From Conexivisphaerales archaeon (GTDB lineage Archaea > Thermoproteota > Nitrososphaeria > Conexivisphaerales > DTJL01): a stretch of 24,000 bases of DNA. The notes beneath the pieces were generated by a model. The model ran no database searches and was not told where the DNA came from. It saw only the letters and a program-made list of their open reading frames with translations. The stretch lies in assembly GCA_035543015.1 (NCBI GenBank), contig DATKKG010000075.1, positions 1 through 24,000 of the forward strand. Direction: 5' to 3'. Position 1 is the first letter of the stretch; each line of letters starts with the position of its first letter. Positions 3,190 through 24,000 of this stretch are shown in pieces. A program made the position numbers and the translations under genes.

Positions 3190-4479
3190 ATGCAACTGAC
3201 GAAGGAACAACCGACTCTTCGAATGAGCACTCTTTCGGGCCTCTACAAGGTCGACATGGAAACGAGGATGAAACGCGTGAAGGAGTTCGCCAACCTCGCC
3301 GACGAAGAAGCGGCCTCCATCTACTCCATGGACTCCCTCAAGAGGGACGTGGCCGACAGGATGATAGAGAACGTCATCGGTGCCATCCAGCTCCCTCTGG
3401 GCGTGGCCACCAACTTCCTCATCAACGGGAAGGAGTACGCCGTCCCCATGGCCATAGAGGAGCCCAGCGTCGTGGCCGCCGCGTCCAACGCCGCCAAGAT
3501 GACCAGGGCGAAGGGGGGCTTCCACGCCGTCTCCACCAGGCCCCTCATGGTGGCCCAGATACAGTCGGTGGGCGTCCCCGACCCCTACGCCGCAGTGCAG
3601 AAGGTCATCGCCCACACAAAGGAGATCCTAGAGATAAGCAACGAGACCAACCCCACCCTCGTCAAGCTGGGAGGAGGCGCCGTTGATCTGGACGCCAGGG
3701 TCCTCGACACCAGCAGGGGGAAGATGGTGATAACGGAGATCACCGTCGACTGCAGGGACGCCATGGGGGCCAACACCGTCAACACCATGGCCGAGACCGT
3801 GGCCCCCCTCATCGACTCCCTCATCGGGGGGAGGGTGCGGCTCAGGATCCTCTCCAACCTCGCGACGAAGAGGCTGGTGCGCTCATGGGCGACCTTCGAC
3901 AAGGAGTCCTTGGGCGGCTCCGACGTCGTTGAGGGGATACTTGACGCCTATGCCTTCGCCGAGGCGGACCCCTACCGCGCCACCACCCACAACAAGGGAA
4001 TCATGAACGGCATATCGTCGGTGGCTCTCGCGACGGGCAACGACACCCGGGCCATAGAGTCCGGCGCCCACGCATACGCCGCCAGGAGCGGCCGCTACAC
4101 ATCCCTCACCAGGTACGAGAAGGACGCCGAGGGGAACATCGTGGGCTCCATAGAGCTCCCCATAGCCTCGGGCATCCTGGGAGGGGCCACCTCCACCCAC
4201 CCCGTCGCCAAGGCCTCCATCAAGATCCTGGGGGTGAAGTCCGCCCAGGAGCTGGCCTGCGTGATGGCTTCCGTGGGACTCGCCCAGAACCTGGCAGCCC
4301 TGAGGGCCTTGGCAACGGAGGGAATCAGCAAGGGTCACATGAAGCTGCATGCGAGGAACCTCGCCGTCATGGCCGGGGCGCCGCCCGAGCTGATATCCAG
4401 GGTGGTCGAGGAGATGGAGAAAGAGCCCCATGTCACCTACGACAAGGTCGTCGAGATAGTCAAGAGGCTGAAGGCCTAG
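3190..4479 (+). CDS. hmgA: Hydroxymethylglutaryl-CoA reductase, class II (mevalonate pathway)
   Basis: 429 aa. ENVIGAIQLPLGVATNFLINGKEYAVPMAIEEPSVVAAASNAAK, DAMGANTVNTM and HNKGIMNG match the class II (Pseudomonas mevalonii type) enzyme. The alternative ATG at 3223 (MSTLSGLY...) aligns better with class II N-termini. Confidence 0.93.
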   Translation: MQLTKEQPTLRMSTLSGLYKVDMETRMKRVKEFANLADEEAASIYSMDSLKRDVADRMIENVIGAIQLPLGVATNFLINGKEYAVPMAIEEPSVVAAASNAAKMTRAKGGFHAVSTRPLMVAQIQSVGVPDPYAAVQKVIAHTKEILEISNETNPTLVKLGGGAVDLDARVLDTSRGKMVITEITVDCRDAMGANTVNTMAETVAPLIDSLIGGRVRLRILSNLATKRLVRSWATFDKESLGGSDVVEGILDAYAFAEADPYRATTHNKGIMNGISSVALATGNDTRAIESGAHAYAARSGRYTSLTRYEKDAEGNIVGSIELPIASGILGGATSTHPVAKASIKILGVKSAQELACVMASVGLAQNLAALRALATEGISKGHMKLHARNLAVMAGAPPELISRVVEEMEKEPHVTYDKVVEIVKRLKA

Positions 4480-4505: not shown

Positions 4506-5564
4506 CTACCTGCCCTCTCCTGAGGCTAGGTCTTCGAGCACCTGGTAGCAGTGCATGGCGTCCTTGGACTCGAGCACGACTATGGCCGTAAGCGTCGCAG
4601 TGATGTATTCGACCAGGTTGATCCCATGTGCCGCCAGCTCCGCCGTTATGACCGCGGCCACCCCGGGGACCTTCATCGTGGCTTCCGACAACGAAATCAC
4701 GACCTCCGAGAGGTTGTCGATCACTCGCAGTATGCTCTTCTGCGGGATCAAGGAGGTTAGCTTCTCCTGATTCTTCGCGTCGAACACCACGCTCACCGTC
4801 TCCAGCGCGGACACCATGTGAAGGGTCTCGCCCCTCGCGTAGTCGACCTCGCCGTTGAACTTGGCAAGCCCGACGGAGACCTCCGGGGAATTGAGTATCA
4901 CGTAGTCGACTATCCTGTCTTTCAGCAGGAGCTTCTGGATGTACTTGCCCACGCCTTCAGGCATCGCCTTGTGCTCGGCGGCGTGGAACCTCTTCACGAC
5001 CTTCACCAAGGGCTCCTTCGTGCTCACCACGCGCTTCTGTCCCTTTGCCCAAGGAAGCACTACCCTGTAGACGTCGACCGGGAAGGCCACGTTCTTCATA
5101 TCGTGAGACTCTAGCTTGATCAGAGGGTAGCGAAGTTTGTTCCGGATCTGGTCGTAGACCTGCTGGGAGATGCACACTTCGCCGCCCGCGGCCATCGGCT
5201 CGATCCTGGAAGCGATGTTGACGGCGTCACCGAAGACGTCGCCGGCCTTATGGACCACGTCTCCCACATGGATGCCTATCCTGACTTTCACCTTCGTCCT
5301 GGCTCTCTGGTTGTAGTCATGGAGGACCTTCTGGATCTCGATTCCGCACCGGGTCGCTTCCAGCGCGCTCCTGAACTCGACCAGGAAAGCGTCACCCATC
5401 GTCTTGACCTCGGTACCTCCATGCCTGCGGAGCACCGGTCGAATCAGCTCCCTGTGCTTCTCAAGGAGCTTAAGGGCCAGTCGTTCGTTCTTCTGCGTTA
5501 ACGCAGAGTAGCCTACGATGTCCGTGAACATGATTGCCGCTAGCCTTCTTTCGGAGCCGGTCAA
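4506..5564 (-). CDS. Class III adenylate (nucleotidyl) cyclase catalytic domain fused to a C-terminal ACT-like domain
   Basis: The N-terminal 170 aa carry the CHD signatures MFTDIVGYS, VKTMGDAFLVEF, RIGIHVGDV and GDAVNIASRIE (both metal Asp, the Lys, and the Asn/Arg pair). The C-terminus, PGVAAVITAELAAHGINLVEYITATLTAIVVLESKDAMHCYQVLEDL, looks like an ACT fold. The only start keeping strand beta-1 is TTG at 5564; the first ATG is residue 12. Confidence 0.85.
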   Translation of the reverse strand: MTGSERRLAAIMFTDIVGYSALTQKNERLALKLLEKHRELIRPVLRRHGGTEVKTMGDAFLVEFRSALEATRCGIEIQKVLHDYNQRARTKVKVRIGIHVGDVVHKAGDVFGDAVNIASRIEPMAAGGEVCISQQVYDQIRNKLRYPLIKLESHDMKNVAFPVDVYRVVLPWAKGQKRVVSTKEPLVKVVKRFHAAEHKAMPEGVGKYIQKLLLKDRIVDYVILNSPEVSVGLAKFNGEVDYARGETLHMVSALETVSVVFDAKNQEKLTSLIPQKSILRVIDNLSEVVISLSEATMKVPGVAAVITAELAAHGINLVEYITATLTAIVVLESKDAMHCYQVLEDLASGEGR

Positions 5565-12060: not shown

Positions 12061-12870
12061 TCAGGCAGCCGGCGTCTTCTTGGGATGCCTGATGACCATC
12101 AAGAGCGTCCCCGCCGTGGCGAGGGCCACCACGATATCGGCGGCCAAAGTCACGTTGGAGACCCCGGCGGCCACCCCGTTCGCCCATTGGTTAGACACTA
12201 TGCCGAACAGAGCCCAGACTATCACCAGACCGTAACCGGGATCCCTTCTCGTTGCCAGCAGTATGAGCGTGATGGCCAGCGCTACGACGGTGACCAACTG
12301 AGCCCAAGTTGTTGCGGCGATGCCGAAGCCGTCCCAGCTAATCGAGACCAAGGCGGAGGAGACGTCAGCTATCGAGGCGATCGTTATCCAACCGAGGTAG
12401 ACGGAGAACGCAAGGTGAACGGCCAGCTTCTCGTTCCTGCTGGCGCCCGACCTCCCTATGTTCAGCCTCAGGTAGATGGCGATAAGCGACAGAAGGAGGG
12501 CGAATATCAGGACCACCGAAGCCGTGATGTATTCGTACTGCCAGAGGAACAGCCAGACGATGTTGAAAAGGGAGCTCAGCATGAAGAGGTAGCCCACCTT
12601 CCCGACAAAGGAGTCGCCCCTGTGGCCCGGCAGAAGCTGGAATACGATGAAAGCGCCCAAGAGCGCATAGATGACTCCCCATATGGCGAACGTGAAGCCT
12701 GCCGGAGTGATCAGCGTCGGAAAGGCGGCCGAGACGTCCGCCGTGTTCACGCCTCCGAGGAGCCTGGTGCTCCCGGCTATGGAGTTGATGACCAGCATGG
12801 CGACATACGCGATCACGTTTCCGACCTGCAGGAAGGAGATTCCTTGCTTCTCTGGCAACCCGGTCCCCAT
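12061..12870 (-). CDS. TspO/MBR-related (tryptophan-rich sensory protein-like) long-form membrane protein
   Basis: Polytopic. GGVNTADVSAAFPTLITPAGFTFAIWGVIYALLGAFIVFQ resembles the roughly 270-aa TspO-related family (…G..TG.VS..YP.LF.PAG.TFSIWGVIY.LL). ATG at 12870; the longest ORF starts with TTG at 12888. The CDS is solid but the family call is from memory. Confidence 0.6.
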   Translation of the reverse strand: MGTGLPEKQGISFLQVGNVIAYVAMLVINSIAGSTRLLGGVNTADVSAAFPTLITPAGFTFAIWGVIYALLGAFIVFQLLPGHRGDSFVGKVGYLFMLSSLFNIVWLFLWQYEYITASVVLIFALLLSLIAIYLRLNIGRSGASRNEKLAVHLAFSVYLGWITIASIADVSSALVSISWDGFGIAATTWAQLVTVVALAITLILLATRRDPGYGLVIVWALFGIVSNQWANGVAAGVSNVTLAADIVVALATAGTLLMVIRHPKKTPAA

Positions 12871-13008
12871 GTCTCGTGTACCTTTCAAGGGTATTTCTGG
12901 ATATCTGTTGCGGCTGGAGAATGCAACCTGTGCCCATGTCTCGCGACTTGCTGTGGCACCAGTCGGAGTTATATGTGGCAGGCAATTCAGAGGAGGCGGA
13001 TACCATAA

Positions 13009-13527
13009 TTGGTGGAGGCAATCAGCTACGAGGTCCTGAAGAAGCTTGGCCAGGTGGAGATAAGGAAGTATCCCCTGATTGTGGCGGCTAGGGTGGACGG
13101 CTACGGCGACGGCGGCTTCAACTTGCTGTTCAACTTCATCTCGGGGAGGAACAGCAAGGCGGAGAAGGTGGCGATGACGGCACCCGTGGTCTCAGAGAAG
13201 ATCGCGATGACGGCACCCGTGCTCTCGGAAGGAGGCTCCATTTCGTTCGTCATGCCAGAAGGCTACACAAAGGAGACCACGCCCCGACCCTTGGATGCGA
13301 GGGTCAAGATCGTCGATTATCCGCCCAGGTACCTGGCGACCCTCAGATTCTCCGGGAGGTGGACCAACAGGGCCTTCGAGTCCAGGTCCAGGGAGATGAT
13401 GAACGAACTTCAAAAGGCTGGCATTGAGCCCAAAGGAGTGCCATTCTCCATGAGGTACAACGCGCCCTTCACACCCTGGTTCATGCGCAGAAACGAAGTG
13501 GCCGTGGAAGTCAGTTATCCTGTGTGA
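13009..13527 (+). CDS. SOUL haem-binding family protein
   Basis: 172 aa. YEVLKKLGQVEIRKYP, the duplicated VAMTAPVVSEK/IAMTAPVLSE motif, and RYNAPFTPWFMRRNEV. Only TTG (13009) or GTG (13012) starts are available. Confidence 0.88.
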   Translation: MVEAISYEVLKKLGQVEIRKYPLIVAARVDGYGDGGFNLLFNFISGRNSKAEKVAMTAPVVSEKIAMTAPVLSEGGSISFVMPEGYTKETTPRPLDARVKIVDYPPRYLATLRFSGRWTNRAFESRSREMMNELQKAGIEPKGVPFSMRYNAPFTPWFMRRNEVAVEVSYPV

Positions 13528-13783: not shown

Positions 13784-14470
13784 CTAAGCGCCCCTCTTGA
13801 GCCCGTTCACAAATCCCAAGCCATCTTTGAGGCTGAGGCTGCAGTAGTCCGCCAACCTCTCTCCAGACGCCTTCCCGGTAACCGCTTCTTTGACTCGCTT
13901 CGATTTGAGGAGGCGGCTCCCCACGATTATCACGGAGTCCCTGAAGAGGGTGTCGGCCCTCAACGCCCGAAGGGTCTTGATCAGACTCTCCTCGTTGTAC
14001 CCCATGGTCATGGTCAGGCAGACTATGTCAAAGCGCCGGCCCAGTCCCCTCAGGTACTCAAAGACTCGATTCAAAGAGGCGCCCCTCTCAATGAATTCAA
14101 CGTCCCACCCTTCGCTAGAGAGCAAAGCTGAAAACATCTTCAGCCCTACGTAATGGAACTCTCCTTCAACGCAGTTCAGAAGCACGGCAGACCCCTTTCT
14201 GACCCCCGCCTGCGCTCTGAGTCGCCGAGCGGCCTTCTCGATCATTTCCATGGTCGTCGCCGTCGCAAAGTGCTCGTCGGCGACGCTGATTTCCTTCTCA
14301 GCCCAGAGCTCCCCTATCCTGACCTGGGCCTCTCCGAGGGTCTCCATTATCGGGAGAAGCCTCTCTCCCTTGTCCAGCATGGACTCGACCACAGATCCCG
14401 CCCTTTTCCTGTCCCTATCCAGGACGGCTTTCAAATAGTCGTCCTTGTAGCTGACCGGTTCTCCTTTCAA
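13784..14470 (-). CDS. Stand-alone cobalamin (B12)-binding protein of CarH/AerR photoreceptor type, with no DNA-binding domain
   Basis: The N-terminal helical bundle has IGELWAEKEISVADEHFAT, an exact W-x9-EH. The Rossmann-type B12 domain has VEGEFHYVGLKM (E-x-H-x-x-G lower-ligand His), IVCLTMTM and IIVGS. 228 aa with a TTG start needed to keep helix 1. Confidence 0.85.
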   Translation of the reverse strand: MKGEPVSYKDDYLKAVLDRDRKRAGSVVESMLDKGERLLPIMETLGEAQVRIGELWAEKEISVADEHFATATTMEMIEKAARRLRAQAGVRKGSAVLLNCVEGEFHYVGLKMFSALLSSEGWDVEFIERGASLNRVFEYLRGLGRRFDIVCLTMTMGYNEESLIKTLRALRADTLFRDSVIIVGSRLLKSKRVKEAVTGKASGERLADYCSLSLKDGLGFVNGLKRGA

Positions 14471-14570: not shown

Positions 14571-15404
14571 ATGCCCGTCTTGAACGACGAAGAGCTCACC
14601 AAGACCCTGATGCGCTTCGGAATCACCCGCCAGGAGGCCGAGGTCTTCCTCCTCCTCTCCAAGGTCAAGAAGGGGGGAATCGAATGGATCGGAGGGAGGG
14701 AGGCGGCCTCCGTAGCGCACAAGAGCAGGGTGAGGACCTACCAGGTCCTCGAAAGGCTCGCGGAGCTGGGACTGGTCAGCACCGACTTCAGCAGGCCCAA
14801 GAAGTACTCGGCTGAGGCTCCCCAGGTCGCCGTCAGAAGGCTCATGGGCATCCACGAGGCCCGACTCACGGAGCTGAGCCACCTGGAAGGAGACGTCGTA
14901 GATGGGCTCTTCAAACTGGAGCCGCCTGACCTGGGTTCGCTCAAGGAAGAAGAAGAGGAGGGGAGGACCAACGTCGTCCTCCTTAGGGGGCTCCCCAACA
15001 TTCAGAACACGTTGAGAAAGGTCATGGAATGCGAGGAGCTGGCCATGACCATCAACGAGGAGTCCGCCGCGCATCTAATGAGCACCCTGGCATACCTGAC
15101 GGAGAAGCCGGGACGCCTGATCCTTCTGCTTTCGAAAGAGGTCTCGCGGAGACAGCTCTCCCGGGCCGGCCTGAGCCCCGGCGCTGAGGTGGCCCACTTC
15201 AGGGGAGAGCTCCCAACCATCGTGATGACCGAAAGGCATACCCTCTTCCTGCACTACTCTACCAAGGAATACAGACCACGGCCGCTGTCGCCGCCGACGC
15301 GCAAGTCCAAGGTCACCGACTGCATCCTCGTCGAGGGAGCCTCCTACGTGCACCGGATGAGGGAGGTCTTCGACGCCCTTTGGGATGCCTCCGTGCAGGA
15401 TTGA
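14571..15404 (+). CDS. TrmB family transcriptional regulator
   Basis: N-terminal winged HTH: LMRFGITRQEAEVFLLLSKV...ASVAHKSRVRTYQVLERLAELGLVSTDFSRPKKYSAEAPQVAV, then a coiled linker and a C-terminal effector-like domain. TATA-like gttaatag lies about 22 nt upstream. Confidence 0.85.
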   Translation: MPVLNDEELTKTLMRFGITRQEAEVFLLLSKVKKGGIEWIGGREAASVAHKSRVRTYQVLERLAELGLVSTDFSRPKKYSAEAPQVAVRRLMGIHEARLTELSHLEGDVVDGLFKLEPPDLGSLKEEEEEGRTNVVLLRGLPNIQNTLRKVMECEELAMTINEESAAHLMSTLAYLTEKPGRLILLLSKEVSRRQLSRAGLSPGAEVAHFRGELPTIVMTERHTLFLHYSTKEYRPRPLSPPTRKSKVTDCILVEGASYVHRMREVFDALWDASVQD

Positions 15405-15495
15405 AGTAGTTTCACATGTTGTAAGATATCATCCTAACTAACATCAGTCTTATAGCGTCTCCGAAGTTGGCTTCATTCAGTAAAAGGTGCCAGGA

Positions 15496-17196
15496 ATGAC
15501 ATCCCAGCAGCTGGAAACCGTGACGCAGGAGTCCACACGCATCGACGCAGCAAAGCTAGTCACCCTTCTTGTGCTCAGCCTCGCGCTGGCCATAGTGATA
15601 ATCGACGGGACCATAGTCAACATCGCCCTTCCCTCCATTCAGACCCAGTTCGCCGTTTCGGTCAACGATCTGGAGTGGATAAGCGCCATTTACGCCCTCG
15701 TCTTCGGCGGCTTCCTCCTCACTTGGGGACGCCTGGGCGACGAGTTCGGACGCCGCCGCATTTTCATGGCCGGGATCCTGACGTTCATCTCCGGCTCGAT
15801 GATAACGGGCTTCGCAAACGGCCTTCCTATGATTCTTCTCGGTAGGCTAGTCCAGGGCTTCGGCGCCGCGATGGCTTCACCTTCCACTCTCTCCATACTG
15901 ACGACCACCTTCTACGGCCGCTCCAGAGGGATAGCGTTCGGGATTTGGGGAGCCGTGGCTGGAGCAGCCGGCGCCCTCGGACCTCTGATCGGAGGCTACC
16001 TTACCACATATGCCACCTGGAGATGGGCCTTCCTGATCAACGTGCCAATTGGAATAGTTGCTCTGGCGGGCTCCTACTTCTTCATCAAGGAGTCGATGTC
16101 CAGGTCCGGGCGCTACGACCCCGACTACCGGGGGACGGCTCTAGTGTCATCCGCCCTGGCCCTTCTCATATTCGGACTCATCGAAGGACAGACCTACGGC
16201 TGGCTGGCTGCGAACCAGGTCTTCAAGATTGGCAGCTTCACCTGGCCCTTCACCTCTGTGGCCATAACGCCGGTCGCCATGGCCCTCGGGCTTGTCTTGG
16301 CAGCTGCCTTCGTGCTGAACGAGAGGTCCCGCCTAAGGGCCGACAGAGAGGTCCTCCTCGACCTCAGGCTCCTGGGCTACCGCGGCTTCCGTTTCGGCCT
16401 TCTGACCGTGGGCGTCGTAGCCATGGGTGAGTTCGGCATCTTCTTCATCCTCTCGCTGTATTTCCAGTTGGTAAGGGGGATGAGCGCCCTCTCCACAGGC
16501 TATGCCCTTCTTCCGTTTGCGGGCACCGCTTTCTTCGCAGCACCCCTCGCAGGCCTTCTGTCCTCGCGCATAGGTGCGAAGTGGATAGTCACCACAGGCA
16601 TGGCCCTGGAAGCCACATCTCTGATCTTGCTTTCGCAGCTCACCGGCGTCAATACCTCTCTGACGACGATTTATGCCATTCTGGCGCTCTACGGGGTCGG
16701 AGTTGGGCTGGCGATAGGCCAGCTCACTGGCCTCGTCGTCGGCAGCATACCTCCTCAGAACGCGGGAACGGCTTCGGGCGCCAACAGCACCATTAGACAG
16801 TTGGGCGCGGCCTTCGGCGTGGCCATCATCGGGGCCGTGCTGGTGGCCCAGGTCTCCTCGGTGGGCCAGGCTCAGCTCCAGGCAAGCACAGTGATACCCT
16901 CCTACCTGAAAACGGCGCTAGCTCCCGTACTAAGCCAAGGACTCATCGGAGGCTCTGCCCCATCGCTGCCGCCATCGATCATCAACTCTCCAATAGGCCT
17001 GGCCATTCAGGGGATTTTCAACTCAGCGATAACCGAAGGCGTGCGATACGCCGCCTTGGTTGCCGGGTTCTTCGTCTCCCTAGGGGCGATAAGTTCCCTG
17101 CTACTGCCCAACAACAGGGTCAAGGGAATCAAAGGAGCCAAGAGCTCCCGCAATCAATATACTGAGAGAACCTACAAGGGAGTCGAGGGTAATTGA
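15496..17196 (+). CDS. MFS transporter, DHA2 (EmrB/QacA, 14-TMS) drug:H+ antiporter family
   Basis: LALAIVIIDGTIVNIALPSIQTQF, WGRLGDEFGRRRIFMAG, LLGRLVQGFGAAM and WRWAFLINVPIG, with about 14 hydrophobic segments. The ATG at 15496 has AGGTG 6 nt upstream; the longest ORF starts with GTG at 15487. Confidence 0.92.
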   Translation: MTSQQLETVTQESTRIDAAKLVTLLVLSLALAIVIIDGTIVNIALPSIQTQFAVSVNDLEWISAIYALVFGGFLLTWGRLGDEFGRRRIFMAGILTFISGSMITGFANGLPMILLGRLVQGFGAAMASPSTLSILTTTFYGRSRGIAFGIWGAVAGAAGALGPLIGGYLTTYATWRWAFLINVPIGIVALAGSYFFIKESMSRSGRYDPDYRGTALVSSALALLIFGLIEGQTYGWLAANQVFKIGSFTWPFTSVAITPVAMALGLVLAAAFVLNERSRLRADREVLLDLRLLGYRGFRFGLLTVGVVAMGEFGIFFILSLYFQLVRGMSALSTGYALLPFAGTAFFAAPLAGLLSSRIGAKWIVTTGMALEATSLILLSQLTGVNTSLTTIYAILALYGVGVGLAIGQLTGLVVGSIPPQNAGTASGANSTIRQLGAAFGVAIIGAVLVAQVSSVGQAQLQASTVIPSYLKTALAPVLSQGLIGGSAPSLPPSIINSPIGLAIQGIFNSAITEGVRYAALVAGFFVSLGAISSLLLPNNRVKGIKGAKSSRNQYTERTYKGVEGN

Positions 17197-18017
17197 ACTC
17201 AGCTGAAAGACGTAAGCTGATTTCCAAGTCTCCGATTTCCTTCAGGTACCTCAAGCGCTTCAACACGGCCGCCGGGGCTCTGCATCTCGTCCAAGGGCTG
17301 ATCATGCTGGCCCTAGGCCTCTCTCTGACCTGGAGCCGGGACATCTACACCTACTACCTCAAGTTCTCCGTCATCAGCCTGTCGCCGCCCGTCTTCAAGA
17401 TCGCCCCCAACCCCCAAGTCCTGTTCACCATCAACAACTTGGGCGCCATACTCGCTTCGTTCCTGCTCATATCGGCCGCCGCACACCTCATAATCGCCTT
17501 CGTCAGGAACAAGCAGTACAACGAGAACCTTTCCAAGGGCATGAACCCCTACCGCTGGTACGAATACTCACTGTCCAGCTCAATAATGATCGTCCTGATC
17601 TGCCTATTCCTGGGCATCTGGGACCTCTGGTCGCTGGTTATGATCTTCACGCTCAACGCCATGATGATCATGTTCGGCTACCTCATGGAGAAGATGAACC
17701 AGACCACGGAGAAGACGGACTGGTCGGCCTTCCTCCTGGGCTGCGTCTCCGGAGGTGTTCCGTGGGTGGTGCTGCTGGCCAACTTCGTGGGCCTCATCGG
17801 GTCTACGAACCTCAGGCCCCCGGCGTTCGTCTACATGATAGTGGTCATCTACTTCGTTCTCTTCAACAGCTTCGCCGTCAACATGGTGCTTCAGTACAAA
17901 GGAGTCGGGAAGTGGAAGGACTACCTCTACGGTGAACGCGTCTACATCCTCCTCAGCCTCATCGCAAAGAGCCTGCTGGCGTGGATCGTTTTCGTAGGGA
18001 TCTTCGCGCCGTTCTAG
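17193..18017 (+). CDS. Heliorhodopsin
   Basis: 274 aa. FNTAAGALHLVQ, AAAHLII, YRWYEYSLSSSIMIVLI, LGCVSGGVPW and FNSFAVNMVLQYKGVGKWKDYLYGERVYILLSLIAKSLLAW parallel remembered heliorhodopsin 48C12 motifs. The Schiff-base Lys (SLIAKS), counterion Glu (WYEYS) and both His are retained. The TTG start at 17193-17195 follows an in-frame TAA directly and overlaps the MFS TGA stop (17194-17196). Confidence 0.93.
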   Translation: MNSAERRKLISKSPISFRYLKRFNTAAGALHLVQGLIMLALGLSLTWSRDIYTYYLKFSVISLSPPVFKIAPNPQVLFTINNLGAILASFLLISAAAHLIIAFVRNKQYNENLSKGMNPYRWYEYSLSSSIMIVLICLFLGIWDLWSLVMIFTLNAMMIMFGYLMEKMNQTTEKTDWSAFLLGCVSGGVPWVVLLANFVGLIGSTNLRPPAFVYMIVVIYFVLFNSFAVNMVLQYKGVGKWKDYLYGERVYILLSLIAKSLLAWIVFVGIFAPF

Positions 18018-18036
18018 GCAACCAAGTGAAGACGCC

Positions 18037-18073
18037 GCCTCCGGTTTTCTTTTTGAGAAGCTCAGCCGGAGGC
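18037..18073 (+). terminator. Hairpin plus oligo-T tract after the heliorhodopsin gene
   Basis: gcctccgg (18037-18044) pairs with ccggaggc (18066-18073). The T-rich run ttttcttttt (18045-18054) lies 20-35 nt after the stop, like an archaeal oligo-T terminator. Confidence 0.45.
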
Positions 18074-18221
18074 ACTCCAGAACTTGGAAGGCTTCTCCGG
18101 GACCTCTGCTGACCATGCTTCGCCCAGCCAACAAATGTGACTTGAACCTTGTAAGTTATGATTCTAAATATCTTCCGACTTAAGTAGGATGCGAGAAAGG
18201 TCATTCTTAGGGAAAAACACG

Positions 18222-18632
18222 ATGGCAAACATCGTTCAAACCGCAATACAGGCTGGCTCCTTCAAGACGCTCGTAGCGGCTGTGCAGGCTGCCGGTCTGG
18301 TCGACACTCTGAGCAGCAAAGGCCCGTTCACGGTCTTCGCACCCAACGACGACGCCTTTGCTAAGCTGCCGAAGGGCACGGTTGAGAGCCTCCTTAACGA
18401 CAAGGCCAAGCTCACTTCCGTACTCACCTACCACGTCGTAGCCGGCAAGGTCATGTCAAGCGACGTAAGGACAGGCCCGGTCAAGACAGTCCAGGGACAG
18501 AACGCCCAGATGAAGGTGTCCGGCATCTTCTCCAAGACCGTCATGATCGACAACGCCAAGGTCATCAAGCCCGACATAGTGACCGACAACGGCCTAATTC
18601 ACGTAATCGACTCGGTCATCCTGCCAGAGTAA
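18222..18632 (+). CDS. Fasciclin (FAS1) domain protein, single domain, no signal peptide
   Basis: [50 protein letters not shown]...[10 protein letters not shown]...[13 protein letters not shown] is a canonical FAS1 domain. The family N-terminus fits the ATG at 18222; the longest ORF starts at 18189. Confidence 0.88.
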
Positions 18633-18647
18633 GACTGCCAGAGCGCC

Positions 18648-18653
18648 TTTTTT
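18648..18653 (+). terminator. T6 tract 16 nt after the fasciclin stop
   Basis: gagcgccTTTTTTagc, an archaeal-style oligo-T termination signal. Confidence 0.35.
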
Positions 18654-18791
18654 AGCTCCAGCGGGCCCTCTTTCCTAGAGGTTTCTTGTTTCTACAACAC
18701 CGGTATTCTAGAATGTTCTATGCAGCGTCTCCATGAACTCAATCGGAAGAGCAATACAATAAAGGGGTCTCAGACACTCATATGCCGCACA

Positions 18792-19652
18792 ATGGAAGCC
18801 ACCATGACGTTGGAGGGCAGGGTCTGCATGGTCACTGGCGCCACCTCTGGCATAGGCAGAGCCACTGCCGAGGCCCTGTCGCGGATGGGAGCTGCCCTAG
18901 TCTTGGTTGGTCGCAGTCGGGAGAAGAGCGAGGAGACGATCATGTTCATCAAGGAATCGACCGGCAACTCGAAAGTCGAGTACCTTCTGGCTGACCTGTC
19001 TTCGCAGAAGGAGATCCGAAGCCTGGTGGAGAAGTTCAAGTCAAACCACAGTTCGCTTCACGTCCTGGTCAACAACGCCGGAGCCACCTTCTCGAAACGC
19101 CGTGAGACCGTCGACGGCTTCGAGATGACCTGGGCCACCAATTACCTCAGCTGCTTCCTCCTGACGAACCTCCTCTTGGACCTGCTCAAGTCCAGCGCAC
19201 CTTCTCGCATCGTCAACGTGTCTTCCGGCCTGCACAGGCGTGCGCGGCTCGACTTCAACGACCTACAGCTGAAGGCAGGCTACTCCAGGGATCGCGCCTA
19301 CGATCTTTCCAAGCTCGCCATGGTTCTCTTCACCTACGAGCTGGCCCGCCGCCTTGAAGGGAGCCGTGTGACGGCGAACGCGCTGGGCCCGGGCCTCGTG
19401 AGGACGAACCTTGGAAAGAACGAAGACCTTGCGACCAAGCTGGCCAAGAGCTTCGCCGACCTCTTCGCCGCCAGTGCTGAAGAGGGGGCAAGGACCAGCG
19501 TCTACCTAGCTTCATCCCCGGAGGTGGAGGGGGTCACGGGGATGTACTTCCTGAAGGGCAGAGAGGCGCGATCCTCCGACTTGTCATACAATTCCGAGTT
19601 CGCCAAACGACTGTGGGAGATCAGCGAAGCGCAGACAGGGCTGAAGCGGTAG
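18792..19652 (+). CDS. SDR oxidoreductase of the retinol-dehydrogenase-like (RDH11-14 / WWOX-like) subfamily
   Basis: VTGATSGIGRATA, NNAGA, DGFEMTWATNYLSCFLLTNLLLDLLKSSAPSRIVNVSSGLH and AYDLSKLAMVLFTYELARRL (YxxxK) closely follow the remembered RDH12-type pattern (DGFE...NHLGHFLLT.LLL..LK.SAPSRIVNVSS..H; AY..SKLAN.LFT.ELARRL). TATA-like caataaag lies about 28 nt upstream of the ATG at 18792; the longest ORF starts at 18720. Confidence 0.9.
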   Translation: MEATMTLEGRVCMVTGATSGIGRATAEALSRMGAALVLVGRSREKSEETIMFIKESTGNSKVEYLLADLSSQKEIRSLVEKFKSNHSSLHVLVNNAGATFSKRRETVDGFEMTWATNYLSCFLLTNLLLDLLKSSAPSRIVNVSSGLHRRARLDFNDLQLKAGYSRDRAYDLSKLAMVLFTYELARRLEGSRVTANALGPGLVRTNLGKNEDLATKLAKSFADLFAASAEEGARTSVYLASSPEVEGVTGMYFLKGREARSSDLSYNSEFAKRLWEISEAQTGLKR

Positions 19653-19936: not shown

Positions 19937-21097
19937 GTGTCAAACAGCTATCTCTTTACATCCGAGTCCGTGGCAGAGGGCCATCCGGACAAGGTAGCCG
20001 ACCAGATCTCCGACGCCATCCTTGACGCCATCCTAGCCCAGGACCCAAAGGCCAGGGTGGACTGCGAGACTCTGGTAATGGAGAGCATGGTGATCGTAAC
20101 GGGCCAAATCACCACCAAGGCGACGGTGAACTACAAGAAGGTCATCAGGGGCGTCCTGAGGGACCTCGGTTTGAACAACGCCCGGGACGGCCTCGACTGG
20201 GAGACCTGTGGGATCCTTGTCTCGATCGAAGAGCAGTCGCCCGACATCGCCATGGGCGTCAACAAGGCTCCCGAGGAGATGGGCGCCGGCGACCAGGGGA
20301 TCATGTTCGGGTACGCCTGCAACGAAACGCCGGAGCTCATGCCCCTTCCCATAATGCTCGCCCACAAGATCGTCAAACGGCTGGCGGAGGTTCGAAAGAA
20401 CGGCGAACTGCCCTACCTCAGGCCCGACGGGAAGTCCCAGGTCACAGTCGAGTACACGGAAGGCAAGCCCGTAAGAGTGGAGGCGGTGGTCGTGGCGGCC
20501 CAGCATGAAGAGCACGTCGACAGGGAGAAGATGAGGAAGGACATCATCGAGAAGGTGATCAAGGAGGTCGTCCCCGCGAACCTCATCGACGCCAAGACGA
20601 AGTATCTTATCAACGAGACCGGCAGGTTCGTCGTCGGCGGAACGCTGGCCGACTCAGGGATAACCGGCAGGAAGATCATAGTCGACACGTACGGCGGGAC
20701 CGGCTCACATGGCGGCGGCTGCTTCGGCGGGAAGGACCCCTCGAAGGTCGACCGTTCGGCGAGCTATATGGCCCGCTACATCGCCAAGAACATCGTCGCC
20801 GCGGGCCTGGCCGACAGAGTTCAGGTGCAGATAGCCTACGCCATCGGAGTGGCGGAGCCCATCTCGGTCTTCGTGACGACCTACGGCACAGGCAAGGTAC
20901 CCGACGCCAAGATCACTGAGCTTGTCAAGAAGAACTTCGACCTGCGCCCCGGCATGATCATCAAACGGCTGGACCTCCTCAGGCCCATCTACAGGAAGAC
21001 GGCCTGCTACGGGCACTTCGGGAGGACCGAGCCGGAGTTCACGTGGGAGAAGACGGACGTCGCCGGCGACCTGAGACGGCAGGCTGGGCTGAAGTAG
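19937..21097 (+). CDS. metK: S-adenosylmethionine synthetase, bacterial/eukaryotic MetK type
   Basis: 386 aa. [57 protein letters not shown] and [19 protein letters not shown], collinear with E. coli MetK. GTG start. Confidence 0.95.
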
Positions 21098-21159: not shown

Positions 21160-22629
21160 TCATGAGGCTCCCTCCGGAAGAACCGGCACGTCCCGACTAT
21201 GGATCGTATACGTGAGGGCCGCCGCCAGGTTGACGCCATCGAACGGCTCCGCCGAGCTCCTCATGTACATGTCCGCCACCGGGGTCACCCGGTAGACTCC
21301 CGAGCTCGCGAGTCCCTCGACAAGCTCGTCCTTCTGCGGGCCCTTGGCCGCCAATCCCACCGTCTGCACCCTGTCGACCCCGCCGAAAGCCTTCCGAAAA
21401 CGGAGCCCCTCCACCTGCGCCAGGGCCTCGGCGGGCGTGTCGACGACCACCATCTCTAGGAACCGTTTCCTGTTGTAGAGGTTGAATGAGGGGAACGAGG
21501 AGACCGCATCGTCTAGCCCGCTCGACTTCTTAGAGAGGACGAGGGTCCACATGTTCCTTGGGTCGTCAGACGAGTAGACTTCGCTGCCTCCGAACCTGAG
21601 GATGCGTCGGACGCTCTGCAATGTGAAGATCGCACCCTCCCCCATCTTCATCTCGTAATCACTGCCGACCTTGGCCAGCTCTTCGCCCAGCGTCTCTGCG
21701 AATGCCTTAGCGGCCTCCCATCTCCCAATGAACGCTCCCTGCGTAGGCGAGCTGCAAAGCTGCTGGTCGTAGAGCACTATGTTCGTGGCAAGCTTCTGCG
21801 CGACCGTCCCGTCCGCCGAAGCCCCATCGACAACCACGAAGCCAGTCATCGGCCCGTTGACGAGATATCTCGGATGGAAGGGGTTCTCTAGGATAAGCTT
21901 GCCCACGGTCGTGCGTGCCGGCTCTCCACCCCAGAAGTTCACCAGGCCAAGGTCCCCCCTGCTCAGCAGTGCCCGGAGGGTAGGGCTATCATGGGTGAAG
22001 TAGCTGAGGGCGATAGCTTGAGACATCAGCCGGGCCGTGTCGGATGTTCCAGCCAACTCGCCTACAAGACTGAACACGTCGGCCACTGCCGAGTAGTTCG
22101 CCATTGAAGGGCGTAGAAGGGTGAAGTTGCCGGTTGCCAGAGACAGGACCGTCGGGATCAGGGGTGGAATTAGGGAGTTCCCAGAGCTTATGATGAACAC
22201 CGGCCCCACGGGCATGTACCTGCAGTACTCTCCAGGCGCGACTCGGCTGAACCGAACGAGCCCCTCCAGATTCGGGAACGAGGCGTCCAAGTTCCTCCTT
22301 ATGTTGGCCCCATTCAACACGAAGGGCACAAGGGAGAACTCCATCAGGCTCAGCTTTCTGCCGTAGCCCGCCGCCCGTGAGAGCGAGTCGATGGAGCCGT
22401 CGAGCTTCCCCGAGTCGAGGCGTTCCTTCCAGAGCCTCCCCACCCGGTCTATTACCTCCAACCTCTCTTCGACGGGCCTCTTCGAAAGCTCGAGCTGGAC
22501 CGACCTTCCTTCCGCCAAGAGCTCCCAGACGGAGGCTTCGCTCAGCTCGGATACCTCATGTCCGTCCAACTGCTTCTTCACGACCTCAGCGTGTCGTCCG
22601 AAGACCAGGGGATTAGTGCCCGAGGACAT
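21160..22629 (-). CDS. LuxC-like acyl-CoA (acyl-protein) reductase, ALDH superfamily
   Basis: About 489 aa from the ATG at 22629. TGNFTLLRPSMAN (ALDH-like GNxxxxKPS) and the catalytic-Cys context YDQQLCSSPTQGAFIG. Coupled to an upstream LuxE-like gene: its ATG shares one base with that gene's TGA (TGATG). Confidence 0.72.
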   Translation of the reverse strand: MSSGTNPLVFGRHAEVVKKQLDGHEVSELSEASVWELLAEGRSVQLELSKRPVEERLEVIDRVGRLWKERLDSGKLDGSIDSLSRAAGYGRKLSLMEFSLVPFVLNGANIRRNLDASFPNLEGLVRFSRVAPGEYCRYMPVGPVFIISSGNSLIPPLIPTVLSLATGNFTLLRPSMANYSAVADVFSLVGELAGTSDTARLMSQAIALSYFTHDSPTLRALLSRGDLGLVNFWGGEPARTTVGKLILENPFHPRYLVNGPMTGFVVVDGASADGTVAQKLATNIVLYDQQLCSSPTQGAFIGRWEAAKAFAETLGEELAKVGSDYEMKMGEGAIFTLQSVRRILRFGGSEVYSSDDPRNMWTLVLSKKSSGLDDAVSSFPSFNLYNRKRFLEMVVVDTPAEALAQVEGLRFRKAFGGVDRVQTVGLAAKGPQKDELVEGLASSGVYRVTPVADMYMRSSAEPFDGVNLAAALTYTIHSRDVPVLPEGAS

Positions 22630-23891
22630 CACTTCCCCCTCATCATCTCTTCCATGCTCCCGCCGCATGCCCTTTGTAGATCCCAGCCTTCGTCCGTGGT
22701 GAGCCGTCTGACGAACGAGAACTCCCTGCCGTAATAGCGCGAGGACCTCTTGGCGACCATGAGGTCCCCAGGATAGAAGACCTCGAGCCAGGACGTTGTA
22801 AACGGGTTGAAAATCCCGACGATCCCCTGTTTTCCTTCCTCCCTCACCGGTTTGAAGGTCTTGGGGTCGAGGAGGAAGACCTCTGAAAGCGGGTGAGGTA
22901 CCTTGTCCATGGCCCCATACCTGTCGATCAGCGCCGTCAGGGTCTCGGTCATTCCCAGCACGTCCATGAAGGGCGCCGGACTCCGTGCTTCATTCCGTCC
23001 CCCGGCGACAAAGTGCTTCGCCGAGAGCTCGACGATATCCGGGTAGGGAGGCAGGTCCGAGAACCCTTTCGTTCCGCCCCCTGTCACCACAAGCCCGCCC
23101 CTGCCCAGGCGCACGGGGGGCGCGCCGGAGGCCAGCCGGTACCCCAGTTTCTTGAATAGGCCCATTTCGTCGAACTGCTTGGCCATCAGGTAGACGCCGG
23201 CCGGGGCAGTGAAGAACAGCTTCGGCTCCTCCCCGCTCTTCAGGAACTTCAGGATCCTGTCCCTGTTGGGCTCCAGCTTCTGCCACGGAACTCCGTTTTC
23301 TGCCCCTTCCAGGAGGTCCATCCCGTAGATGAGCTCGATGTCCTTGCGCTCGAGCGCCAGCTGAACGAAGGCGACGAAGCTCAACCTGTAGCGGAGCTCA
23401 GGTGCAGCCATGAAGAGCGCAACGCCCTTCCCCTCCTCCAAGTGCCTCCCATAGACATATTCGAACAAGTCCGTGTTGGCCTTTATCATCACAGCCAGGT
23501 CCAGGGGGCTCCTGTAGACTTTGACCGGCTCCTTCCCCGAGGTCCCGCTGGACTTGAAGTATTCTCCTCCGGGCTCCACGTCATCTATCAGCAGAGGCTT
23601 CTGGCCTTCGCCCCTCAGGATGTCGGAGGGAACCGCTAGCTTCGCTAGGTCCCCCAGTTCAGCGTCGGAAGGAGCTATCGACAGCCTTTCGAAGAGTTCT
23701 GCGTAGTGCCGGCTGTGACGCGCGAAGAACTGGAGCGACTCCCGGAAGAGGCCCTTCCTGAGCTCCATCAGGTAATCTGGCGATCTCTCGAAGAGCGACG
23801 GGTCGTTCACCGTTTCCCAGACTTTGGAGACGTATGGGTCGCCCAACAACTTGCTCTTCTCCGCGGCTTGGAAGATCGCCTGGGCATCCAT
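22629..23891 (-). CDS. LuxE-like acyl-protein synthetase / adenylate-forming (ANL, PaaK/F390-synthetase-like) enzyme
   Basis: FKSSGTSGKEPVKVYRS (P-loop-like SSGTxGxP), VVTGGGTKG, and a C-terminal subdomain PGDLMV...FSFVRR. ATG at 23891; the longest ORF starts with GTG at 23900. Confidence 0.68.
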   Translation of the reverse strand: MDAQAIFQAAEKSKLLGDPYVSKVWETVNDPSLFERSPDYLMELRKGLFRESLQFFARHSRHYAELFERLSIAPSDAELGDLAKLAVPSDILRGEGQKPLLIDDVEPGGEYFKSSGTSGKEPVKVYRSPLDLAVMIKANTDLFEYVYGRHLEEGKGVALFMAAPELRYRLSFVAFVQLALERKDIELIYGMDLLEGAENGVPWQKLEPNRDRILKFLKSGEEPKLFFTAPAGVYLMAKQFDEMGLFKKLGYRLASGAPPVRLGRGGLVVTGGGTKGFSDLPPYPDIVELSAKHFVAGGRNEARSPAPFMDVLGMTETLTALIDRYGAMDKVPHPLSEVFLLDPKTFKPVREEGKQGIVGIFNPFTTSWLEVFYPGDLMVAKRSSRYYGREFSFVRRLTTDEGWDLQRACGGSMEEMMRGK

Positions 23892-24000
23892 GACCAACAC
23901 TTCACTATGAAAGAACCCCGTACATAAGACTTCATGACGAGAGGAGCCTACCGCGGCTTCGGGCCTGATGTGGAGGTTGGCAAAACGAGAAAAGGGCGAC

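Follow-up and report, generated by a model that had tools for sequence, protein, structure and literature searches.

The heliorhodopsin (HeR) gene of a Conexivisphaerales archaeon, located within the first 24,000 nucleotides of contig DATKKG010000075.1 (assembly GCA_035543015.1; this whole stretch is referred to here as the window), is the distal gene of a pair with an efflux transporter of the major facilitator superfamily (MFS), and it is followed by a gene for a small cytosolic FAS1 (fasciclin) protein that recurs as a neighbour of HeR genes in archaea. An earlier note on this DNA had proposed that the HeR, the FAS1 protein and a short-chain dehydrogenase/reductase (SDR) encoded downstream form a retinoid supply module. 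The three genes do lie in a row on the + strand between positions 17193 and 19652, but they do not make up a retinoid module. We favour, with a probability of about 0.5, a reading of the locus as the neighbourhood of a light sensor, in which the MFS transporter and HeR would be co-transcribed, the FAS1 protein would act as an accessory, a SOUL-family protein is encoded nearby and the SDR would be a passenger. To date, partners have been assigned to only a few HeRs, namely glutamine synthetase, photolyase and an ATP-binding cassette (ABC) exporter.

The HeR gene (17193–18017, + strand) encodes a protein of 274 aa. It exceeds the curated cutoffs of both the Pfam model PF18761 (E=2.4e-95; 319 bits, cutoff 26.7) and the NCBIfam equivalog NF038020 (351 bits, cutoff 100) and is thus a bona fide member of the family. 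In the alignment of 14 homologues, the Schiff-base lysine K259 (in the stretch SLIAKSLLAW) and E124 are invariant; we take these residues to be the equivalents of K241 and E107 of 48C12. The first 20 residues (17193–17252; MNSAERRKLISKSPISF..), which form the cytoplasmic N-terminus, lie outside the Pfam model of HeR. These residues are strongly conserved in this archaeal HeR clade, with M1, R6, I10, S13, P14 and L20 being invariant, and the N-terminal tail is a candidate protein-interaction site.

The gene preceding HeR (15487–17196, + strand) encodes a DHA2-family MFS efflux transporter, which scores 239.5 bits against the NCBIfam model TIGR00711 (efflux_EmrB), over the cutoff of 230.2. Its stop codon TGA (17194–17196) overlaps the start codon TTG of HeR (17193–17195) with four nucleotides shared (ATTGA). 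The identical 4-nt overlap is present in two relatives (L171 and L168; loci and contigs are denoted by L numbers). Further upstream, a TrmB-family transcription regulator (14571–15404, + strand; Pfam TrmB, E=1.3e-6) precedes the pair, and the order TrmB>MFS>HeR is retained in both relatives, extending to TrmB>MFS>HeR>FAS1 in L171.

The overlap of the two genes suggests translational coupling of the light sensor with the exporter and recalls the published regulation of an ABC exporter by HeR. It has been demonstrated by experiment that OcHeR binds and modulates OmrDE, a multidrug ABC exporter (PMC11109279). In the pairs of HeR with glutamine synthetase, photolyase and OmrDE, the HeR gene adjoins, or is co-transcribed with, the gene of the protein that is modulated by direct binding. 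The HeR of the window resembles these pairs in overlapping the gene of an efflux transporter, and in relatives HeR precedes a DrrA-type ABC exporter. However, the transporter in the window is a DHA2 MFS protein and not an ABC exporter, and its partnership with HeR is putative. The HeR may modulate its presumably co-transcribed exporter in the manner in which OcHeR modulates OmrDE.

The FAS1 gene (18222–18632, + strand) encodes a protein of 136 aa, which matches the Pfam Fasciclin model PF02469 with E=7e-41 over 123/123 model positions. Alignment of the family places the true start at the ATG at 18222 and not at 18189. The homologues all start with M-[AKT]-[ND]-IV-[EDQ]-TA right at the domain, and the protein ends with the domain. 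Because the homologues begin directly at the domain, the protein is without a signal peptide, and the alignment confirms its earlier description as a cytosolic single FAS1 domain of this length.

Recurrence of FAS1 beside HeR was analysed in 80 genome loci from species-representative archaea, each surrounding a HeR homologue of 64–80% identity; all open reading frames (ORFs) of these loci were scanned with the proteins of the window. In 5 of the 80 loci a FAS1 gene lies no more than 6 kb from HeR, and four of the five are within 900 bp, a clustering which by our own calculation has P ~0.002 under random placement in loci of 12 kb. Leaderless FAS1 flanks HeR in at least eight gene arrangements and in two archaeal phyla, the lineages concerned being Conexivisphaerales-like archaea, Bathyarchaeia and Methanobacterium. 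In a neighbour-joining tree of HeR, the FAS1-adjoining HeRs fall into at least five separate clades that are interspersed with HeRs without FAS1, and the FAS1 gene is found either upstream or downstream. All of the HeR-adjacent FAS1 proteins are leaderless. A contrast set was provided by metagenome FAS1 relatives at 53–67% identity, apparently mostly bacterial. Most of the matches listed have signal peptides, and a HeR is nearby for none of these but for 2 of the roughly eight that are strictly leaderless. The HeR-FAS1 pairing is a genuine recurrent association which has apparently not been described before. Leaderless FAS1 and SOUL are absent from the ten published classes of HeR neighbours (PMC11109279), and our search of the accessible literature found no discussion of HeR together with fasciclin, SOUL or haem-binding protein.

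The arrangements are as follows. The order MFS>HeR>FAS1 is found in the window and L171, FAS1>HeR in L169/L170 and HeR>FAS1 in L094. Where a SOUL gene participates, the order is <SOUL FAS1> HeR> in L034 and L041, FAS1> <SOUL HeR> in L024 and <SOUL HeR> FAS1> in L076 (Methanobacterium). Longer arrays are present in L175-178 (FAS1>HeR>ABC>GvpA) and in L181 (FAS1>HeR>ABC>ABC2>SOUL> <PNPOx), and in L095 and L053 the FAS1 gene is 3.8–5 kb from HeR. Genes for SOUL/HEBP, a DrrA-type ABC exporter and PNPOx-like proteins are often present in the same loci as HeR-FAS1.

Three of these loci show additional features. In the Bathyarchaeia locus L181 (4001–8417), FAS1, HeR, ABC_tran, ABC2_membrane and SOUL follow one another on one strand, uniting nearly all of the recurrent neighbours, with a convergent Pyridox_ox_2 gene after SOUL and a GAF-PAS histidine kinase gene before FAS1. 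In a widespread peat and bog population of Bathyarchaeia (L175-L178, 4001–8417), gas-vesicle genes, for GvpA and an AAA ATPase, come directly after FAS1>HeR>ABC_tran, which hints at a light-related control of buoyancy. In L169 (1–639) and L170 (608–1621, − strand), a membrane-anchored protein with two FAS1 domains, an N-terminal transmembrane helix and a Ser/Thr-rich linker is encoded divergently from FAS1>HeR; the HeR of this lineage is 81% identical to that of the window.

The role that the FAS1 protein could have near HeR was considered from its relatives. A confident AlphaFold2 model of it (pLDDT 84.5) has the FAS1 fold, with TM-scores of 0.85–0.92 to solved FAS1 domains, but a fold search cannot separate FAS1 functions because all FAS1 domains superpose. 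By sequence, its closest single-domain relatives of solved structure are Rhodobacter Fdp (E=1.6e-35; 52% identity in structural alignment) and CupS (phmmer E=2.3e-31 to 6tjv_Q; 47–48% identity); AstaP, the green-algal astaxanthin-binding FAS1 protein, is more distant (E=3e-11; 30% identity). CupS (Thermosynechococcus Tll0220; PDB 2mxa, 6tjv_Q) is a cytosolic FAS1 subunit which docks on the cyanobacterial NDH-1MS membrane complex. It shares with the FAS1 protein of the window a single FAS1 domain of about 135–150 aa, the lack of a signal peptide and a cytoplasmic location. Unlike CupS, however, the window protein has HeR and transporters as its genomic partners and not NDH-1 or CupA; no ndh or cup genes are present in the window or in the related loci, where the neighbours are HeR, transporters and SOUL. 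Docking would be an extrapolation from CupS.

AstaP (PDB 8c18, 22iy) shares the FAS1 fold (TM-score ~0.8) and is linked to light and photo-oxidative stress. AstaP is a secreted, glycosylated protein with disordered tails, in contrast to the window protein, which has neither a signal peptide nor flanking tails. Specific to AstaP are residues at the tunnel exit (positions 111 and 138; Gln56/Leu57 of AstaPo1); our comparison with AstaP covers overall identity and E value. Kornilov et al. have described carotenoid binding as a neofunctionalisation of the AstaPs of the Scenedesmaceae, which are green algae, and reported that the cyanobacterial SynAstaP, the one prokaryotic single-FAS1 protein tested, bound no carotenoid under identical conditions. 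They also state that many FAS1 proteins retain the hydrophobic tunnel (PMC10147662). AstaP, which had been cited as a precedent for a chromophore carrier, is therefore a weak one for this protein. For FAS1, a docking or adaptor role has a closer precedent than that of a ligand carrier. It is possible that FAS1 is a cytosolic accessory protein of the light response of HeR, most likely docking on HeR or on the associated transporter as CupS does on NDH-1MS. Alternatively, it might handle a hydrophobic ligand of the HeR/transporter system.

The spacers of the locus suggest that the three genes are not expressed as one unit. The HeR and FAS1 genes are separated by 204 bp and the FAS1 and SDR genes by 159 bp, and each spacer contains a T-tract followed by a conserved TATA-like box. 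Directly after the HeR stop codon, an inverted repeat (GCCGCCTCCGG ... CCGGAGGC) surrounds the T-tract TTTTCTTTTT (18034–18073, + strand) and is a candidate archaeal terminator; a T-rich tract is also present in L171 at the matching position. Upstream of FAS1, a 41-nt box, TGTAAGTTATGATTCTAAATATCTTCC[G/A]ACTTAAGTAGG (18150–18190, + strand), which contains TTCTAAATAT, is a candidate promoter with B recognition and TATA elements. The window, L171 and L086 differ in this box at one G/A position only, in a spacer that has otherwise diverged. After the FAS1 stop codon, a run of six T (CGCCTTTTTTAGC; 18648–18653, + strand) that is kept in L086 is a second candidate terminator. Upstream of SDR, the box GCAAnnCAATAAAGGGG (18751–18770, + strand) is a candidate TATA promoter, which would give a near-leaderless mRNA. 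This box, with CAATAAAGGGG about 30 nt before the SDR start codon, is conserved in L086, where the rest of the spacer has diverged. Because T-tracts and conserved TATA-like boxes sit in the spacers, we infer three transcription units, namely MFS-HeR, FAS1 and SDR, with FAS1 and SDR each having a promoter of its own.

The SDR gene (18792–19652, + strand) encodes a soluble protein of 286 aa, the start of which (ATG at 18792) is backed by the orthologue in L086. It is a classical SDR (Pfam adh_short, E=6e-34) related to RDH11-14, PRK06197 and LPOR. PRK06197 is its best NCBIfam model (218 bits, under the cutoff of 268), and its nearest solved relatives in the PDB are an uncharacterised mycobacterial SDR (3rd5) and then LPOR. 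The translation has TGATSGIG, NNAG, VSSGLH and YDLSK, corresponding to the motifs TGxxxGIG, NNAG and S...YxxxK, and contains both motif strings on which its likeness to the RDH11-14 retinol dehydrogenases had been based. Several homologues at 56–58% identity carry the Joint Genome Institute (JGI) name 'retinol dehydrogenase 12'. In an alignment with human RDH12, the identity is 42% over 281 aa with one gap, which we regard as a lead and not as a test. An arginine of the SDR (in VLVGRSREK) aligns there with the arginine of ACRD in RDH12 and presumably marks an NADP(H)-type site. The protein starts 10 residues before the glycine motif, and the alignment begins at residue 35 of RDH12. The SDR motifs and the NADP(H) arginine are shared with RDH11-14, the N-terminal membrane anchor of which is lacking. 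We assume that the group corresponds to CDD cd05327, which would also contain LPOR.

The SDR is thus RDH11-14-like by sequence and its retinoid activity is putative; we know of no prokaryotic member of the RDH11-14/PRK06197-type SDRs with retinoid activity. It belongs to a very large and widespread prokaryotic subfamily. Outside its own lineage, those of its next homologues (55–63% identity) that are named are mainly from Chloroflexota, Rubrobacteraceae and soil bacteria, and one homologue (59% identity) sits in a non-retinoid context, MarR>SDR>ABC. It might be an NADPH-type carbonyl or aldehyde reductase of a ubiquitous subfamily. RDH11-14 prefer NADPH and act as retinal reductases in cells. 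Since an NADP(H)-type site favours reduction, an SDR of this type would consume retinal and not supply it, the reverse of the function that had been envisaged.

This bears directly on the proposal that HeR, in a host without blh and crt genes, is loaded by FAS1 acting as a cytosolic carrier of retinoids or carotenoids and by the SDR interconverting scavenged retinol and retinal. The likeness of the SDR to RDH12, the hydrophobic tunnel of many FAS1 proteins, the recurrent adjacency of HeR and FAS1, and the conservation of the trio in L086 are in keeping with such a scheme. The same is true of the gene content: family scans confirm the earlier statement that the window has no such gene, since no match to the Blh, Brp and crt families was obtained in the 26 ORFs that were scanned or among the genes called in the 21 kb around them. 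The scan took in 24 of the window's 36 ORFs with a length of 150 aa or more, the others mostly overlapping scanned genes in other frames. HeR hosts have often been reported to be without retinal synthesis, and the fenestration of HeR has been proposed to capture exogenous retinal (PMC9385722). Pan et al. (2020) found RDH-annotated genes in HeR-bearing Bathyarchaeota and speculated on the use of exogenous retinoids (PMC7110647), and SDRs are a listed class of HeR operon partners (PMC11109279). However, current models bring the chromophore into HeR from the membrane or the outside and not from the cytosol (10.1101/2025.11.27.691015). The lack of the membrane anchor of RDH11-14, the direction implied by the NADP(H)-type site, the distance of FAS1 from AstaP together with the algal origin of carotenoid binding and the negative result with SynAstaP, and the apparently separate promoters of the genes all argue against the scheme, and we consider it quite improbable.

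The distribution of the SDR also speaks against a part in HeR function. A scan of the 80 archaeal loci with phmmer (E up to 1e-5) reveals not a single SDR within 6 kb of HeR. The frequency of neighbours supports a tie to HeR for FAS1 but not for the SDR, and the proposed module finds support in its FAS1 half only. The full trio HeR>FAS1>SDR is kept in close relatives within the lineage of the window (L002 and L086) and not beyond them. In L086, which has the last 21 codons of HeR at the contig start, FAS1 is 91% and the SDR 73% identical to the window proteins, and one 2.1-kb contig apparently has homologues of both FAS1 and the SDR. In a related lineage, contigs with a 74%-identical SDR (L084/L085) show no HeR, and the contigs with the 81%-identical HeR (L169/L170) show no SDR; these contigs are from the same two JGI samples and may belong to different genomes. 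The link between HeR and the SDR is therefore lineage-specific and mechanistically unconvincing, and the SDR looks like a bystander. Tied to FAS1 and HeR in this lineage alone, it probably serves as a general stress enzyme or is a passenger.

Several observations weigh against the reading of the locus that we favour. Close FAS1 homologues of L172 and L179 are not beside HeR, and L168, the HeR of which is 86% identical, is without FAS1. The enrichment of leaderless FAS1 near HeR is an estimate, the background frequency in genomes not being part of the figure. The promoter and terminator roles in the spacers are read from conservation of the sequence, and the functions of the neighbours from gene context throughout. 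In L085 a FAS1 paralogue is located 2.9 kb from the SDR; because of this proximity and of the trio in L086, FAS1 and the SDR may be linked within the window lineage. Finally, 'SDR family oxidoreductase' is one of the ten frequent HeR operon partners given by Cho et al. (2024; PMC11109279, Suppl. Data 6). The published cases are from Rhodococcus (with 4-nt overlaps), Nocardioides, a Chloroflexi strain (MO-CFX2) and Thermococcus sp. 2319x1. Some adjacency of HeR and SDR is to be expected by chance, because SDRs are very abundant in actinobacteria.

Some of these observations would also fit a chance juxtaposition, in which the MFS, FAS1 and SDR genes are unrelated to HeR in function and the local order is inherited within one lineage. 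L004 and L005, the closest relatives at the genome level (HeR 80% and 77% identical), share no neighbours with the window save a cyclase-like gene in L004. The loss of FAS1 from L168, the occurrence of FAS1 homologues away from HeR and the presumed promoters of FAS1 and SDR point in the same direction. However, chance would hardly account for the multiple arrangements, HeR clades and phyla in which HeR and FAS1 are adjacent, for the clustering of FAS1 within 900 bp, for the limitation of the association to the leaderless class of FAS1 or for the conserved overlap of MFS and HeR. We regard chance as an improbable explanation of the locus as a whole.

The light-sensor neighbourhood that we favour also includes a SOUL/HEBP-family protein. 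In the window, the SOUL gene (13009–13527, + strand; Pfam SOUL, E=2e-38) is located 3.7 kb upstream of HeR and encodes 172 aa without a signal peptide; in the PDB the protein matches human HEBP2 weakly. Haem binding by SOUL/HEBP2 is at best weak. The archaeal SOUL proteins share with the SOUL/HEBP haem-binding family a length of about 170 aa and solubility, and differ in being encoded mostly divergently from HeR. Among the 76 archaeal loci with enough flank, 25 have a SOUL gene in the 900 bp that precede HeR, divergent from it in 22 cases and co-directional in 3, with 18 of 55 in Bathyarchaeia/Thermoproteota and 7 of 14 in Methanobacteriaceae. SOUL/HEBP is the strongest conserved neighbour of archaeal HeR that we found. 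A 'heme-binding protein' beside helR in Methanobacterium subterraneum appears without comment in one published supplementary table only.

When the ORFs of all 80 loci are clustered without bias, SOUL/HEBP comes first among the recurrent neighbours (32 loci), followed by Pyridox_ox_2 (18), AhpC/TSA (9), DrrA-like ABC_tran (8), DUF1722 with 2-thiouracil desulfurase (7), a membrane protein of no known family (6, plus the window locus) and FAS1 (5). These neighbours fit two published themes, namely the proximity of HeRs to redox and oxidative-stress genes, which are enriched near them (PMC8612252), and the regulation of exporters (PMC11109279).

From such neighbours one can construct a defence that is triggered by light and directed at phototoxic tetrapyrroles and reactive oxygen species. 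HeR would sense light and up-regulate the exporter (MFS here, DrrA-type ABC elsewhere), and SOUL and FAS1 would bind hydrophobic photosensitisers, for example porphyrins and corrinoid precursors, or pass them on. PNPOx-like enzymes and peroxiredoxin would degrade the photosensitisers or detoxify their products, and the SDR would reduce reactive aldehydes. The counts of SOUL, Pyridox_ox_2, AhpC/TSA and ABC_tran, the two published themes and the array of L181 beside Pyridox_ox_2 are all consistent with this scheme, as are the induction of AstaP by photo-oxidative stress and the presence of SOUL and a photocobilin-like B12-binding protein 3–4 kb upstream in the window. However, the ligand roles of the archaeal SOUL and FAS1 proteins are putative, with the weakness of haem binding by SOUL/HEBP2 counting against them. 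Each association is partial, the link to the SDR is not conserved, and common stress genes could have led to an over-reading of the theme. The defence scheme is unlikely as it stands, though less so than chance.

It may tentatively be suggested, again as an unlikely possibility, that leaderless FAS1 and SOUL/HEBP are dedicated cytosolic partners of HeR. They could be the long-sought subunits for signal transduction or effector docking, or chaperones which load retinal or an antenna carotenoid where retinal synthesis is lacking. If so, they would be the first conserved soluble accessory proteins of HeR, and the FAS1 fold would have a second ligand-handling or regulatory role outside green algae. 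The analysis of the locus takes the RDH-like SDR, attractive but unsupported, out of the candidates and puts forward two small soluble proteins that recur across Bathyarchaeia, Methanobacteriaceae and Conexivisphaerales-like archaea. Both FAS1 and SOUL are cheap to express and to test for binding of HeR or chromophore, and Methanobacterium species with the SOUL-HeR(-FAS1) arrangement are cultivable. Binding of HeR or chromophore by either protein would provide a general handle on signalling by archaeal HeRs or on their chromophore loading.

Between SOUL and the TrmB-MFS-HeR genes, the window contains a gene for a stand-alone B12-binding protein of 228 aa (13784–14470, − strand; Pfam B12-binding_2 and B12-binding). 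Its best PDB relatives are photocobilins, the photoreceptors with B12 and bilin (8j2w/8j2x/8j2y, E=1.6e-12), and its best NCBIfam match is CarH, far under the cutoff. It could be a second light sensor of the locus, with uncertain membership of the module, and no homologues were seen near the other HeRs in the 80 archaeal loci. On the other side of SOUL, a multi-pass membrane protein of about 265 aa (12061–12888, − strand) recurs a few kb from HeR in six other loci (L032, L033, L041, L061, L073 and L083). A TspO-like identity was considered for this protein and rejected, as Pfam and PDB gave no match at E up to 10; NCBIfam gave no match either.

Downstream of the SDR, the window encodes MetK (19937–21097, + strand) and, 3 kb downstream of HeR, a LuxC-like acyl-CoA reductase (21160–22668, − strand), which is overlapped by a 420-aa ORF with marginal similarity to acyl-protein synthetase (22629–23900, − strand). 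A similar LuxC/LuxE-like pair (25% and ~21% identical) is located 3 kb from HeR on the Chloroflexota plasmid CP069395.1 (L183/L185), and the pair was considered as a HeR partner and rejected. It is present in none of the 80 archaeal loci, and its position near HeR in both places is probably a coincidence. Towards the other end of the window are HMG-CoA reductase (3190–4479, + strand) and a protein with an adenylate/guanylate cyclase domain (4506–5564, − strand), a homologue of which, 52% identical, is located 1.8 kb from HeR in L004.

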